Shown in pieces: positions 13,890 to 48,804 of a stretch of 64,000 bases of DNA. The notes under the pieces were generated by a model. The model saw only the letters and a list, made by a program, of their open reading frames with translations. It was not told the origin of the DNA and did not search any database. This DNA is from an uncultured bacterium (lineage in GTDB: Bacteria > Patescibacteriota > Minisyncoccia > Moranbacterales > GWC2-37-73): contig CAINNK010000008.1 in the NCBI GenBank assembly GCA_903851135.1, positions 13,136 through 77,135 on the forward strand, in the 5' to 3' direction. Position numbers and translations under genes: made by a program. Each line of letters begins with the position of its first letter. Positions within the stretch are counted from its first letter, which is position 1.

Positions 13890-15053
13890 ATGAAAATTGG
13901 AATTGATGCGAGATCTATTTTAAACCCAGCTAAGGGCGATGCAATTGGAGTGGGTCACTACACCTATCAGCTTATTCGACACTTGCTGGAAATCGACACA
14001 GAAAATGAATATGTACTTTTCTTTGATTTTCGAGTGCGGGAAAAAGATGTGAAGAAATTTTCCAAGCCGAATGTTCAAATCAGGTTTTATCCTTTTTCGG
14101 ATTACAAAAAATATTTGCCGGGAGCTTATAGCGAAATTTTGGGAACGGCCACTTTGCAAAAAGAAAACTTGGATGTGCTGCATTCAACTTCAGCGCTCAA
14201 TCGCATTCCAATGGGCTATCAAGGCAAAACCATTGTGACTTTTCATGACATGGCGGCTTTTGAGATTCCTCAGTATTTGCCAGCTGTTGGCCGAACCAGG
14301 GACAAAGCAATTTCCAATATCATGGCCGCCAAGGCAGTTAAAATCATTGCCGTTTCAAATTCGGTCAAAGCGGAACTCAAAAAACATTTGAAAATTGTCG
14401 AGGAAAAAATGGAAGTTATTTATAGTGGTCTGGACGGACGATTTTTTCAAGAGCCGGAAACGAGTGGGGCCAAAATTTTGAGCAAATATGATATCAGCAA
14501 GAAATACATTTTGTTTTTGGGAACCTTGGAACCGTCAAAAAATATTGCGCAACTTTTGGAAGCTTTTGCAAAATTCAAAAATCTGCAGAAAAAACAAAAC
14601 GGTGGCAAATTTGATTTTCAATTGGTGTTGGCTGGTAAGCGTGGTTGGATGTCAAAAGCTTATCCTCAAATTATCAAGGATTTGGGTTTGATTAAGGATG
14701 TGATTTTCACGGGCTATATCATTGGCGACGAGCTGGTGCCACTGTTTCGTGGGGCTGAGTTTTTCGTGATGCCATCTTTTCATGAAGGTTTTGGGATGAC
14801 GGTGTTGGAAGCATTTGCCACGCAGACCCCGGCGATTGTTTCCAATGTGGCATCATTGCCAGAAATTGCTGGCGATGCAGCACTGTTTGTTGATCCGATG
14901 AGCGTTGAAGAAATTACCAAAGCAATGAGCACGCTGGCTAACGACCCAGCTCTTTGCGCTGAGCTTCGCAACAAAGGTTTGGAGCAAGCCAAAAAATTTG
15001 ATTGGAAAAAAACCGCCCAGCAGACGTTGGAGATTTACAAAAGTTTAAAATAG
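13890..15053 (+). CDS. Glycosyltransferase family 4 (GT-B fold)
   Basis: C-terminal E-x7-E region PSFHEGFGMTVLEAFATQTPAIVSNVASLPEIAGDAALFVDP typical of GT4 glycosyl transferases. Confidence 0.85.
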   Translation: MKIGIDARSILNPAKGDAIGVGHYTYQLIRHLLEIDTENEYVLFFDFRVREKDVKKFSKPNVQIRFYPFSDYKKYLPGAYSEILGTATLQKENLDVLHSTSALNRIPMGYQGKTIVTFHDMAAFEIPQYLPAVGRTRDKAISNIMAAKAVKIIAVSNSVKAELKKHLKIVEEKMEVIYSGLDGRFFQEPETSGAKILSKYDISKKYILFLGTLEPSKNIAQLLEAFAKFKNLQKKQNGGKFDFQLVLAGKRGWMSKAYPQIIKDLGLIKDVIFTGYIIGDELVPLFRGAEFFVMPSFHEGFGMTVLEAFATQTPAIVSNVASLPEIAGDAALFVDPMSVEEITKAMSTLANDPALCAELRNKGLEQAKKFDWKKTAQQTLEIYKSLK

Positions 15054-15059
15054 GAATAA

Positions 15060-15340
15060 AATAGATTTAAAGGCAATGAGGGAGCTATCACTCTCTCGCC
15101 CAGGTGAAATTTTCGCTTTGCGAATTTCACTGGGCAGGCCATGCGAAGAAAATCGCCAAGGAGGCGGAAAGTAGAACGCGTCGGGTAGGCCCGTAACAGC
15201 TTGAAAAGAGGGCTTTAGCTTCATTAGCTTCGTTAGTTTTTAGGAAAATGAATTTTTTCTATAAGCTATAAGCTATAAGCTATAAGCTAAACTAAGGTGG
15301 TACCACGAATCATTTCGTCCTTATGCATTTTTTGCGTAGG
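15060..15340 (+). promoter_or_regulatory. T-box riboswitch-like leader of ileS (GC-rich structured 5' region with antiterminator T-box sequence)
   Basis: AAGGUGGUACCACG at 15294-15307 matches the T-box consensus AGGGUGGNACCGCG. Helix A1 AAGG/CCUU, 7-nt bulge UGGUACC (UGGU matches the tRNA-Ile NCCA end with discriminator A) and helix A2 ACG/CGU are all present. The GC-rich island 15085-15200 contains an AUCA triplet in a hairpin loop. ileS is a classic T-box-regulated gene. Confidence 0.45.
15262..15287. repeat. Heptamer tandem repeat (ATAAGCT)4
   Basis: ctataagctataagctataagctataagcta, directly 5' of the T-box motif. Confidence 0.9.
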
Positions 15341-15546
15341 GATTTTTGTTTATTCTCTACGAATTACGAATTTTTACGAATGTACGAAAAATTTAACTCC
15401 TCCCTTTAGAAAAGGGAGGTTGGGAGGGATTTGAAAAATTTTCTTTGCAAATATAGTTTTTCAAATCCACCTTAATCCTCTTTTTCTAAAGGAGGAAAAA
15501 ATAAATTTGTAGGATTTAAGATATTAATAATTTTAGATAAAAACAT

Positions 15547-18500
15547 ATGAATTTTAAGAAGGTTGATGTCAAACAAAGTTTTCCGAAGATGGAGGAAGAG
15601 ATTTTGAAATTTTGGGAAACTGAAAAAATTTTTGAAAAATCTTTGGAAAAAACCAAGGGTGGGAAGCCCTACACTTTTTTTGATGGGCCACCTTTTGCGA
15701 CGGGCACGCCTCATCATGGGCATATTGTGGGCAGTGTGATGAAAGATGTGGTGCCGAGATTTTGGACAATGAAAGGACGACATGTGGAAAGAAAATGGGG
15801 TTGGGATTGCCATGGGCTGCCGATTGAAAACATTGCTGAAAAAGAATTGGGTTTCAAGCACAAGAAAGATATCGAGGAATATGGTGTTGATAAGTTCAAC
15901 GAGTTTTGTCGCAGCAAAGTTTTGGGTTATGTGGATGATTGGAAAAAAGTAATCAACCGATTGGGCCGCTGGGCTGACATGGAAAATGCCTACAAGACCA
16001 TGGATTTGAAGTATATGGAATCAGTTTGGTGGGTTTTCAAAGAATTGTGGGACAAAGGCTTGATTTATGAAGGTTATCGTTCCATGCACATTTGCACTCG
16101 CTGCGAAACCACCCTTTCTCAACAGGAAGTTTCGGAAGGATACAAGGATATCAAGGATTTATCAGTGGTTGCAAAGTTTGAGTTGCTCTCTACGAATTAC
16201 CTGCCTACCGGACAGGCAGGCGAATCTGATACGAATGTACGAAAAGAAGACGAAGCCAAGACTTATATTTTGGCGTGGACAACGACGCCTTGGACTTTGA
16301 TTGGAAATGTGGCGCTGGCAGTGGGGAAGGATATTGAATATGAATATTTACAAATAGATGCTAGTGATAGCGCTAAATTCAATAAGGGCGATATTTATAT
16401 TGTAGGTTTGGAAAAAATTAAAAATGTATCAGGAGGAACTTTAGCTGTTTATGATTGGGGATACAATGTTAATTTTGCAAATGAGGGTAACGTTTCTTTT
16501 AAGCGAATAAAGACCATAAAGGGTTCTGATCTGATTGGTAAAACCTACAAGCCGCTTTTTGATTATTATCAGACTCCGGATTTGGAAAATGCAGAAAATG
16601 GCTGGAAAATTTATGCGGGTGATTTTGTGACGACGGAAGATGGAGTGGGTGTGGTGCATATCGCGCCGGCTTTTGGGGAGGATGATATGAATTTGGGAAA
16701 GGAAAACAATTTGCCTTTCATTCAGCATGTGAAAATGGATGGAACCATTAAAGAGCAAGCGACTGACTTTGCTGGGATGAATGTAAAATCCTTGGAAGAT
16801 CATATGCAGACTGACATTGAAATTATCAAATATCTGGCAAAGCATGGCACGCTTTTTTCCAAAGAAAAATATGAGCACAGTTATCCGCATTGTTGGCGCT
16901 GCGATACACCGTTAATCAACTACGCAACCACTTCTTGGTTTGTCAGTGTTGGCAAAGTGAAGCAGCGAGCGCTTGAGCTAGCCAAGGAAATCACTTGGTT
17001 TCCGGCGCATATCAAAGATGGACGTTTCGGAAAATGGTTGGAAGGCGCTCGTGATTGGTCAATTTCCCGTCAGCGTTTTTGGGCGTCAGTGATGCCGATT
17101 TGGCGCTGTGAATGCGGCGAGATGAAAGTTTTTGGCTCAGTAGCTGACTTGGAAAAAGTTTCAGGTGAAAAAATATCAGACTTGCATAAACACATTGTCG
17201 ACAAAATAACTGTGCCATGTGAAAAGTGTGGAAAACAAATGCACCGCGTGCCGGATGTTTTGGACACTTGGTTTGACTCTGGTTCGATGCCATATGCTCA
17301 GCAGCACTATCCATTTGAAAATCAAGAAAAATTTGAAGACGGTTTTCCAGCTGAATTCATCGCAGAGGGCGTGGATCAAACTCGCGCTTGGTTTTATTAT
17401 TTGCATTTGATTGCCACGGCCATCAAAGATAAAAATGCTTTCAACAATGTCATCGTTAATGGAATCGTGTTGGCGGAAGATGGCAAGAAAATGTCCAAGC
17501 GGCTGCAGAATTATCCAGATCCGACTTATCTTTTTGACAAATATGGAGCTGATGCTCTCAGATTTTATTTGATGTCTTCGCCAGTGGTGGCTGCGGACAA
17601 TTTGAATTTCAAAGAAAGCGATGTTTCTGATTTGGTGCGCGGAATGTTTCGCATGCTTTGGAATTCGTATTCGTTTTTTGCACTTTACGCCAACATTGAT
17701 GGCTTTGATTCAAAAAAGAAAAATGAAAAATCCGAAAATCTTTTGGACAAATGGATTTTGTCAGAACTGCATATTCTCATCAAAGAAGTCAATGAAAATA
17801 TGGAAAAATATGATTTGGCACGCACAGCCAGACTGTTTCCAAAATTTATCGACAATCTTTCCAATTGGTACATTCGCCGCTCTCGCAAAAGATTTTGGAA
17901 ATCTGAAAATGATGCTGACAAGGATTTTGCTTATCAAACTCTGCACACCGTGTTGGTTGAACTTTCAAAATTGATGGCACCATTCACGCCGTTCATGTCG
18001 GAAGAAATTTACAGGAATTTGGTTAGCAGTTCACAGTCAACAGTTCACGGCGAAGAGAGTGTTCATCTTGCTGATTTTCCAGTGGCGGATGAGAGTTTGA
18101 TTGATGAAAAGTTGAATGAAGACATGGAATTGGTAAGATTTATTGTTACGGAGGGGCTTAGAAGTCGTGCTGAGCATAAAATAAAAGTAAGGCAACCATT
18201 GAAATCTGTAACTGCAAGACCAATAAGAATTGAATTGCAAGAAATGGTAAAAGAAGAACTTAATGTTAAAGAATATAATAGTGATGGTTTTAAAGATGGC
18301 GAAGAAGGATTTTTTAATATGTTAGATCTTTCTATTACTCCCGAACTTAAACTCGAAGGTCAAGCTCGTGAAATTGTGCGTTTCATTCAGGAAATGCGTA
18401 AGCAGGCAGGTTATGAAGTTGAAAATCATATCAGCGTTCAATTCGAAGGTCTTGATGAAGTTTTTGAAAAGTTTTCAGATTTGATTGCCAAGGAAACTTT

Positions 18501-18597
18501 ATCGGATTCAATTGAAAAAGGTGCTGGCGAAGATTTTGATTTGAAGAAGGAATTGGAGGTGGATGGAAAAAAAATATTAATAGCTGTGAAGAAATAG
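15547..18597 (+). CDS. ileS: Isoleucyl-tRNA synthetase
   Basis: HIGH motif PPFATGTPHHGHIVGS, KMSKS motif KMSKRLQN, editing-domain sequences. 1016 aa. In-frame repeat inserts at about 16190-16240 (YLPTGQAGESDTNVRKED from ctacgaat/cctgcctaccggacaggcagg/tacgaatgtacgaa modules) and 18028-18055 (SSSQSTVHGEES). Confidence 0.95.
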   Translation: MNFKKVDVKQSFPKMEEEILKFWETEKIFEKSLEKTKGGKPYTFFDGPPFATGTPHHGHIVGSVMKDVVPRFWTMKGRHVERKWGWDCHGLPIENIAEKELGFKHKKDIEEYGVDKFNEFCRSKVLGYVDDWKKVINRLGRWADMENAYKTMDLKYMESVWWVFKELWDKGLIYEGYRSMHICTRCETTLSQQEVSEGYKDIKDLSVVAKFELLSTNYLPTGQAGESDTNVRKEDEAKTYILAWTTTPWTLIGNVALAVGKDIEYEYLQIDASDSAKFNKGDIYIVGLEKIKNVSGGTLAVYDWGYNVNFANEGNVSFKRIKTIKGSDLIGKTYKPLFDYYQTPDLENAENGWKIYAGDFVTTEDGVGVVHIAPAFGEDDMNLGKENNLPFIQHVKMDGTIKEQATDFAGMNVKSLEDHMQTDIEIIKYLAKHGTLFSKEKYEHSYPHCWRCDTPLINYATTSWFVSVGKVKQRALELAKEITWFPAHIKDGRFGKWLEGARDWSISRQRFWASVMPIWRCECGEMKVFGSVADLEKVSGEKISDLHKHIVDKITVPCEKCGKQMHRVPDVLDTWFDSGSMPYAQQHYPFENQEKFEDGFPAEFIAEGVDQTRAWFYYLHLIATAIKDKNAFNNVIVNGIVLAEDGKKMSKRLQNYPDPTYLFDKYGADALRFYLMSSPVVAADNLNFKESDVSDLVRGMFRMLWNSYSFFALYANIDGFDSKKKNEKSENLLDKWILSELHILIKEVNENMEKYDLARTARLFPKFIDNLSNWYIRRSRKRFWKSENDADKDFAYQTLHTVLVELSKLMAPFTPFMSEEIYRNLVSSSQSTVHGEESVHLADFPVADESLIDEKLNEDMELVRFIVTEGLRSRAEHKIKVRQPLKSVTARPIRIELQEMVKEELNVKEYNSDGFKDGEEGFFNMLDLSITPELKLEGQAREIVRFIQEMRKQAGYEVENHISVQFEGLDEVFEKFSDLIAKETLSDSIEKGAGEDFDLKKELEVDGKKILIAVKK

Positions 18598-45772: not shown

Positions 45773-46150
45773 ATGTGTTCGAAAGATTTTTGTTATGTGC
45801 TTATCGGAAAAGATAACAAATACATGATCCTTTGTCGTCAAGAGGATTATGATTTGAATTTGATCCGTGAAGCCATCAGGCATGCGTTTCCCGCACTACC
45901 AAATGATGTGGAGATCTTGGTTCGCGATTGTCATAAGATGTTCTCCAGTCAATTCGAATGCCAAGTTAGGCCCCTGGAAGCAAGTAATTGGGGCAGTATC
46001 CGTTTTATTGCTCTCCAGATAGTTGAGAAAGATAACGTAACTTATTGCTGCAGGGCAAAGTTTTTTGGAAATTTCAGTATTCTTCCTAAAAGGAAATTAA
46101 AATTATTAGGTTTTCTTCATACTAAACCCAAAATTTTACAGAAAGATTAG
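45773..46150 (+). CDS. Hypothetical Cys-rich protein (125 aa)
   Basis: Strong SD GGGAGGAG 4-5 nt before the ATG. 7 Cys. No family recognised. Confidence 0.5.
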   Translation: MCSKDFCYVLIGKDNKYMILCRQEDYDLNLIREAIRHAFPALPNDVEILVRDCHKMFSSQFECQVRPLEASNWGSIRFIALQIVEKDNVTYCCRAKFFGNFSILPKRKLKLLGFLHTKPKILQKD

Positions 46151-46264
46151 TTTGGTGAGGTTAAAAACTGGTGGTACCAATGGGTAGCCAGTTTTTTTAT
46201 TTTCAAAATTTGACGCATTTCATTTTTATGTTAAAATACCCCTAGGAGGTATACAAATAAAAAT

Positions 46265-48428: not shown

Positions 48429-48522
48429 TGTATACTCCTGATTCAGGGTTAGTTTTTTCTTTTCTAAAATTTTTAAAAAACAAAAAATCCATGAGAGGAT
48501 TTTTGATCTTTTGGTTTTTGGG

Positions 48523-48597
48523 GTGGGCGTGCCTAGATTCGAACTGGGGACCTCGTCATTATCAGTGACGCGCTCTAACCAACTGAGCTACACGCCC
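48523..48597 (-). tRNA. tRNA-Ile (anticodon GAU)
   Basis: Minus-strand sequence GGGCGTGTAGCTCAGTTGGTTAGAGCGCGTCACTGATAATGACGAGGTCCCCAGTTCGAATCTAGGCACGCCCA gives a cloverleaf with a 7-bp acceptor stem and anticodon loop CUGAUAA. One C-A mismatch in the T-stem. Confidence 0.8.
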
Positions 48598-48726
48598 GTA
48601 TGTGGACCGGACAGGACATTTTACGTCGCTTTCGTTCCTTGGAAACCCATGGTTTCCAAAACCTTCCTCCAACGGAAAACTCCCGTTTTCCGACCCTTTC
48701 CCGTTCAAGTTGAAAAAAGAGTTTTG

Positions 48727-48799
48727 TGGACCGGACAGGACTTGAACCCGCTACCTCCTCAGTGCAAATGAGGCGCTCTACCAGGTGAGCTACCGGCCC
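48727..48799 (-). tRNA. tRNA-Ala (anticodon UGC)
   Basis: GGGCCGGTAGCTCACCTGGTAGAGCGCCTCATTTGCACTGAGGAGGTAGCGGGTTCAAGTCCTGTCCGGTCCA. Canonical cloverleaf, G3:U70-type Ala acceptor, anticodon loop UUUGCAC. Confidence 0.9.
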
Positions 48800-48804
48800 A
48801 TATA

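Follow-up and report, generated by a model that had tools for sequence, protein, structure and literature searches.

It is upstream of the isoleucyl-tRNA synthetase gene ileS, in the 64,000-nucleotide stretch of DNA that we analysed and call the window, that a complete T-box leader lies (15069-15351, plus strand). The gene, on the same strand (15547-18597), encodes a 1016-residue enzyme with its ATG at 15547 and is the predicted regulated gene, and the homologues of this IleRS assign the window to Candidatus Moranbacteria, within the CPR/Patescibacteria. Upstream, a promoter-like site identified purely by its match to the consensus (TTTACA-17 nt-TAAAAT, 15034-15062, plus strand) puts the predicted transcript start near 15069, a few bases ahead of the first helix; the same arrangement, TTTACA..TAGAAT, stands upstream of the leader in the relative L005, and L093 carries at this place a sequence identical to that of the window. 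The two small ORFs that overlap the leader (15045-15224 on the minus strand and 15297-15434 on the plus strand) have no Pfam match.

The predicted ligand is also present in the window: a tRNA-Ile with anticodon GAU and discriminator A73, and with its CCA not encoded, lies at 48524-48597 on the minus strand. It adjoins a tRNA-Ala(UGC), the two occupying 48522-48800 (minus strand), and this adjacency is typical of the spacers of rRNA operons; no rRNA was detected within the window.

The initial annotation had described a T-box-like leader upstream of ileS, and all of its statements about the letters themselves hold, position for position. The motif AAGGUGGUACCACG is present at 15294-15307 with its UGGUACC bulge flanked by AAGG/CCUU and ACG/CGU helices, the UGGU matches the NCCA end of the tRNA-Ile of the window by way of its discriminator A73, and the start of ileS, placed about 200 nt farther on, is the ATG at 15547, 196 nt past the U tract. 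The claim of a T-box itself is borne out by modules that are intact and by the occurrence of the same element at ileS in related genomes.

Decoding domain and its relatives

The 5' half of the leader, all of it on the plus strand, opens with a three-way junction (15072-15140), deduced from folding and from comparison with relatives, in which a basal helix P0, a short Stem I, and an extra hairpin, X, meet in place of a K-turn. P0 (GGC/GCC, 15072-74 / 15138-40) covaries in 31 leaders (AU 14, GC 10, GU 4), and it was on the grounds of this covariation with the 15138-40 strand that we rejected the pairing of GGC 15072-74 with 15199-15201 proposed by RNAalifold from four sequences. Stem I, obtained by folding, has 7 bp (GAGGGAG/CUCUCUC, 15078-84 / 15091-97; whole hairpin 15078-15097) and a 6-nt apical loop, CUAUCA, in which the specifier AUC (15087-89), followed by the purine A15090, is complementary to the anticodon GAU of tRNA-Ile. 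The AUCA hairpin loop had been offered as a candidate Ile specifier, and the assignment gains weight from the finding that all related leaders inspected, including those misaligned by our covariance model CM R1 (see below), have an unvarying AUC in the Stem I loop.

Stem II follows at 15141-15181, with a basal helix (AUGCG/CGCGU, 15141-45 / 15177-81) and an upper helix (15153-57 / 15163-67) that both covary, and with two S-turn strands, AAGAAA (15146-51) and AAAGUAGAA (15168-76), that are almost invariant across the 31 leaders. Next to it comes a 21-nt Stem IIA/B pseudoknot (15182-15202), supported by conservation and covariation, whose helix IIA (CGG/CCG, 15182-84 / 15191-93) is invariant or covarying, and which contains the F-box-like CCGUAA (15191-96). 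Its helix IIB (AGGC/GCUU, 15187-90 / 15199-15202) lies outside CM R1 and still covaries in relatives, being AAUGU/ACAUU in L007, GAUGU/ACAUC in L001, CGGAA/UUCCG in L054, and AGCAU/AUGCU in L025. The Rfam model places its Stem I on 15155-15219, with AAG (Lys) as specifier; we reject this placement, since relatives that lack hairpin X align correctly with the Rfam model and, together with covariation, identify this segment as Stem II with its S-turn.

The relatives were collected by a scan of one genome per species, which yielded 80 CPR ileS loci, and in about a quarter of these a GGUGGUACC-type core stands directly upstream of ileS. The leaders follow a common plan: a basal helix with the K-turn consensus GGC-GAU-GA ... 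GA-GCC; a Stem I of 4-6 bp whose loop always carries AUC, usually as AUCA; the Stem II S-turn strands AAGAAA and AAGUAGAA; CGGGUARGCCCGUAAYAGC, which is the 21-nt IIA/B pseudoknot with the F-box-like CCGUAA; a variable Stem III; the AAGG-UGGUACC-ACG... antiterminator; and finally a hairpin into which GUCCUU enters again, with a U tract behind it. CM R1, a covariance model of the decoding half that we built from six compact CPR leaders, matches the window at 15069-15209 (56.3 bits, E 7.4e-10). The comparison with ileS leaders of related genomes also came out in favour of the element: CM R1 matches 26 of the 80 other CPR species' ileS loci, as well as close metagenomic relatives, and each match lies upstream of ileS and on its strand. 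In the resulting alignment, 95.4% of the cells are standard pairs, a proportion somewhat inflated by the fitting of the alignment to the model itself, and 18 of the 19 pairs have changes on both sides. None of 500 shuffled controls reached any of the observed measures, and sliding the partners brought the pairing to 31-47%.

Rfam, on its part, supports the identification to a degree. At gathering thresholds, the window contains two tRNAs and nothing else, and at permissive thresholds the T-box family RF00230 is the sole non-tRNA family at E<0.01. Its match (15149-15325) is significant over the whole window and both strands (E 3.9e-5), so that this part of the T-box assignment stands, but at 39 bits it falls short of the gathering score of 93. 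The same model gives 32-70 bits on the relatives, always below 93, and on relatives that lack the insertion it aligns all modules correctly, with 74 Stem I positions deleted in L021. The low Rfam score is therefore explained by the missing distal part of Stem I and not by decay.

Hairpin X (about 16 bp, 15098-15135) separates the 3' strand of Stem I from P0 as an insertion, and it is limited to the window, L082/83, L084/85, and L093, among which it shows compensatory changes, for example GCCCAG/CUGGGC vs. GUCUCG/CGGGAC. In leaders with X, the GA of the K-turn pairs with UC, which makes a 7-bp Stem I, while the 3' GA is absent and X sits on the non-bulged strand; in the window, GA 15078-79 is Watson-Crick paired with UC 15096-97, and there is accordingly no K-turn at the base of Stem I. 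X is absent from L081, L086, and L087, which have the K-turn consensus instead, as do other relatives without X such as L005 and L021. The IleRS proteins of L081 and L086 are 82-88% identical to that of the window, yet their leaders have kept the K-turn consensus and have no X. Given that the K-turn is held to be essential for T-boxes with a short Stem I and a Stem II (PMC7583486), its loss counts against a working switch in the window; we infer that the three-way junction of P0, Stem I, and X replaces the K-turn in orienting Stem II.

Two of the close relatives deserve a separate description. L088, with an IleRS that is 77% identical, entirely lacks a T-box (1400-1530), and its RNase J gene ends 53 nt before ileS; the element is thus patchily distributed even within Moranbacteria. 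A pattern scan of metagenomes added one new close relative, L093, plus one duplicate and three chance matches. In L093 (reverse strand, ~2000-2590), a window-type promoter and hairpin X are combined with an L086-type Stem III, an L084-type A2 insertion, and an L087-type spacer, which suggests that leader modules reassort among close relatives through recombination within the leader.

Stem III, antiterminator, terminator, and spacer

Stem III (15211-15288, plus strand; dG -28.7 on folding) is flanked by the purines AAGAG (15206-10) and AA (15289-90) directly 5' of the antiterminator, which corresponds to the RRRxG ... AA motif described for T-boxes (PMC7583486). Its arms are made of tandem repeats, TTAGCTTCA x2.4 and CTATAAG x4.4, the latter with 100% matches at 15259-15289. 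The initial annotation had seen such repeats as invading the leader, a reading that does not hold for the CTATAAG array, because it is the 3' arm of Stem III and pairs with the TTAGCTT-type repeats at 15215-36. Close relatives have equally long Stem IIIs built from other repeat units: CTATAAG x4.4 in the window corresponds to TGATTAC x5 in L082 (~790-875), to CTAAGAAG x4 in L084 (~1195-1270), and to a TACATAAT-like unit in L086 (~1175-1245). The hairpin is thus preserved despite the turnover of its unit, with the 3' arm as a perfect array and the 5' arm as a degenerate complement.

The antiterminator (15294-15322, plus strand; dG -4.2 to -6.3) consists of helix A1 (AAGG/CCUU, 15294-97 / 15319-22), the 7-nt T-box bulge UGGUACC (15298-15304), and helix A2 (ACGAA/UUCGU, 15305-09 / 15314-18). 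The bulge conforms to UGGNACC, with its variable base complementary to discriminator A73. At the base of A2, the window has A15305-U15318 in place of the usual G-U wobble, the uridine being kept, and among 13 relatives this position beside the bulge has A-U in 11, G-U in one, and G-C in one. The wobble has been described as a steric sensor of the aminoacyl group, and its replacement counts against a working switch.

Overlapping it at its 3' side, folding gives an 11-bp intrinsic terminator (arms 15317-27 / 15333-43, plus strand; dG -14.4 to -15.0) followed by the U tract UUUUGUUU (15344-51). Terminator and antiterminator share 15317-22 and are mutually exclusive, as in class I T-boxes. When 13 Moranbacteria-type leaders were folded, the terminator exceeded the antiterminator in stability every time (-6.7 to -16.9 vs. 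-2.7 to -13.1 kcal/mol), its 5' arm started at GUCCUU (GCCCUU in L008) or at most 3 bases from it, and the pairs distal to the shared CCUUA covaried, with UG, UA, CG, AU, and GC at one step. A hairpin with the CCUU strand running up to a U tract was found in 19 of 19 Moranbacteria-type (group A) leaders, a count in which the script chose another hairpin for the window, whose own terminator rests on separate folding. From the U tract to the ATG there are 196 nt in the window and from 20 to more than 1200 nt in the relatives, sometimes with another gene in between, and no Shine-Dalgarno sequence precedes the ileS ATG either in the window or in the relatives. The arrangement is consequently not that of the class II sequestrator that masks a Shine-Dalgarno sequence: the hairpin is followed by a U tract, with no such sequence to mask and the ATG 196 nt off.

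A naive terminator scan of the 36-56 kb region gave no enrichment (19 found, 16.6 expected), and it therefore lends no independent support to the use of intrinsic terminators by this organism. The 9-mer GGTGGTACC has a second exact copy at 46170 (46165-46200), where a CTGG...CCAG hairpin with a T run behind it holds the copy in its loop, shortly past the stop of the ORF at 45773-46150. We rejected this copy as a T-box, as it is an ordinary terminator loop, and the 9-mer alone is thus not diagnostic of a T-box.

In ten more distant CPR leaders, from Magasanikbacteria and others (L009, L045, L054, L061, L065, L071, L072, L074, L076, and L080), the decoding domain is kept about 150-250 nt upstream of ileS and Stem III is short or absent. 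The bases that lead up to their U tract find a partner in the 5' strand of either Stem III or helix A1, for instance CCAC ... GUGG ... GUGG-U7 in L054 and CCGAG ... CUCGG-U7 in L009, and the terminator's 5' arm accordingly precedes the T-box bulge. These leaders may have a different switching topology.

Between the terminator and ileS lies a structured 5'UTR spacer that is not part of the T-box (15352-15546, plus strand; dG -61, z -6.5 on folding). It contains TACGAAT x2.1 at 15358-15372 and a long inverted-repeat hairpin at ~15356-15513, of which there is no further copy elsewhere in the window; the matches of the spacer to microRNA families are artefacts of this long hairpin and were discarded. 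The spacer is nearly identical in L081 and L086, and other relatives have different inverted-repeat structures, other elements, or genes in its place. The interval between terminator and ileS is an insertion hot spot, as seen in the window and in L081/L086, L082, L087, L089, L093, L002, L006, L014, L019, and L021. L082 has here a PDDEXK_3 gene flanked by GTACAAAA-type inverted repeats, and other relatives have a HIT gene (L006), a NUDIX gene (L019), a Trp-repressor-like gene (L002), or genes of unassigned function (L014 and L021). The inserted NUDIX protein of L019 begins with MSFKKVDAK, a copy of the IleRS N-terminus, and L014 retains 13 codons of the ileS start as a remnant ahead of the insertion. 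Adenylylated nucleotides are what HIT and NUDIX enzymes act on, and for this reason their co-transcription with the synthetase may be meaningful.

Comparison with known T-boxes

The decoding half of the leader has its closest likeness, compared by description, in the class II translational T-boxes of actinobacterial ileS, known from Mycobacterium tuberculosis, M. smegmatis, and Nocardia farcinica (PDB 6UFG and 6UFM, cited in PMC7583486). Both stand before the same gene and share AUC plus a purine as an apical-loop specifier, a short Stem I without the distal platform, an S-turn in Stem II, and a compact IIA/B pseudoknot of 21 nt, so that the window possesses the class II decoder as that class is described (PMC7583486). 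The F-box is CCGUAA in the window vs. CCGUCA in N. farcinica, and insertions in Stem III and helix A2 have been reported for the actinobacterial ileS class as well. In contrast to the actinobacterial leaders, that of the window ends in an intrinsic terminator with a U tract and not in a Shine-Dalgarno sequestrator, it has in place of the K-turn a three-way junction that includes an extra hairpin, and its host belongs to the CPR/Patescibacteria.

The other half resembles the canonical transcriptional T-box (RF00230; Bacillus subtilis tyrS and ileS), with which it shares the UGGNACC bulge, helices A1 and A2, a terminator formed with the antiterminator's 3' strand, the order of Stem II, IIA/B, and Stem III, and the position upstream of an aminoacyl-tRNA synthetase gene. 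The long Stem I of class I, with its internal-loop specifier and its platform of interdigitated T-loops, is represented here by a hairpin of 7 bp closed by a 6-nt loop. What is missing from the Stem I of the model amounts to about 74 positions, namely the specifier internal loop, the AG bulge, and the distal loop, and this accounts for the 32-70 bits against the cut-off of 93, and the A2 pair at the bulge is A-U instead of G-U. The glyQS T-box of Bacillus subtilis and Geobacillus is likewise transcriptional and minimal and reads the discriminator by the same logic, but it has kept the long Stem I and dropped Stem II and IIA/B, whereas the leader of the window did the opposite. What the window has is a class-II-like decoder on a class-I platform, in a new host group, and no new principle is involved.

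This combination departs from the published generalisations. A short Stem I is presented as a trait of translational T-boxes, and transcriptional T-boxes are said to "generally require" a long Stem I, given that tRNA capture must precede the arrival of the polymerase at the terminator (PMC7583486, PMC11297988). They are also said to need the elbow-binding platform for fast tRNA capture (PMC7583486), and the lack of this platform in the leader of the window counts against a working switch. The class II model of TBDB had been searched only in Actinobacteria and in Rfam-detected sequences. In the part of the literature covered by our search, T-boxes were not mentioned together with CPR, Patescibacteria, or their phyla, and an earlier description is possible.

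Proposed mechanism, alternatives, and significance

Most likely, the leader is a functional tRNA-Ile-specific T-box that controls ileS by transcription attenuation, a conclusion reached by analysis from its modules, their covariation across CPR genomes, the cognate tRNA, the mutually exclusive helices, and the promoter-like site. For tRNA binding, charge sensing, and termination we rely on established T-box biology (PMC7583486). Transcription would start near 15069, and the apical loop of Stem I would offer AUC-A, with the S-turn of Stem II and the IIA/B pseudoknot docking alongside Stem I to form an anticodon groove for tRNA-Ile(GAU), an arrangement known from the solved structures of actinobacterial ileS T-boxes. 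The tRNA would then be decoded by AUC and latched by the Stem II S-turn, with no distal Stem I platform available for its elbow. The polymerase would next transcribe the 78-nt Stem III, and after it the T-box bulge. A bound tRNA that is uncharged would pair through its ACCA-3' end with UGGU 15298-15301 and stabilise the weak antiterminator (about -5 kcal/mol), allowing read-through into ileS; with a charged tRNA, or with none, the shared strand 15317-22 would go into the stronger terminator (about -15 kcal/mol) and transcription would stop at the U tract 15344-51.

The initial annotation had wondered whether the switch was rewired, perhaps to translation, or decaying, and neither reading fares well. 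An actinobacterial-like translational T-box, with the hairpin at 15317-43 as the sequestrator of a ribosome-binding site, might be expected from the fact that an apical-loop specifier, a Stem II S-turn, and the pseudoknot have been described only for translational T-boxes (PMC7583486, PMC11297988), and the 3' arm of this hairpin does contain a purine-rich UAGGGA. The hairpin, however, is an 11-bp terminator that overlaps the antiterminator and has its U tract directly behind it, as in all 19 group A leaders, and the ATG, which no Shine-Dalgarno sequence precedes, is found 196 nt farther on in the window and anywhere from 20 to beyond 1200 nt in the relatives, at times past another gene; we hold translational control to be very improbable. 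That repeats have disrupted everything except the T-box core, leaving a decaying or rewired relic with ileS expressed constitutively or permanently attenuated, would agree with the sub-threshold Rfam score, the tandem repeats inside the leader, the lost K-turn consensus, and the long insertion before the ATG. Against this, every functional module is intact, correctly paired, and covarying, the repeats themselves form Stem III, and hairpin X and the terminator carry compensatory changes among close relatives; moreover, the essential ileS behind a terminator of -15 kcal/mol calls for a working antiterminator, and L088, truly without the element, lost all of it and kept no remnant. A relic is hence hardly to be believed.

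One could also suppose that ileS is controlled chiefly by the spacer, by way of mRNA stability or RNase III processing for instance, with the T-box as an accessory, considering that the spacer folds far better than its shuffled versions (z -6.5) and is conserved almost base for base in L081 and L086. In other close relatives, unrelated sequences or genes take its place while the T-box stays, which is the behaviour of an insertion hot spot, and a leading role of the spacer is in our opinion highly unlikely.

T-boxes are the textbook case of one structured RNA reading another. Reviews associate the short Stem I with the slow, reversible translational control of Actinobacteria and the long Stem I with the kinetically demanding transcriptional mode, and here a short-stem decoder stands before a terminator, conserved with covariation in many CPR lineages and missed by Rfam-based annotation. 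With it, one can ask of a natural example whether co-transcriptional sensing really depends on the elbow contact and on the K-turn. Tentatively, and with somewhat less than even confidence, we propose that the CPR ileS leaders are a distinct and so far unannotated T-box class that joins a platform-less, apical-loop Stem I to an intrinsic terminator. If this is true, they would be a natural counter-example to the need for the elbow contact in fast co-transcriptional tRNA capture, and lineage-specific additions would compensate for its absence: a Stem III of 80-100 nt built from repeats would make the decision window longer, and the three-way junction, with its hairpin X, would stand in for the K-turn or contribute a further tRNA contact. 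The spread of the class across Patescibacteria would then fit an origin of the T-box in the common ancestor of Terrabacteria, with the short-stem ileS T-box as an early form. Should these leaders already be described in other literature, the result would still be the clean annotation of a real riboswitch. The element is one of the few recognisable cis-regulatory RNAs in the reduced genomes of the CPR, and it adds a new data point for the evolution of T-boxes.
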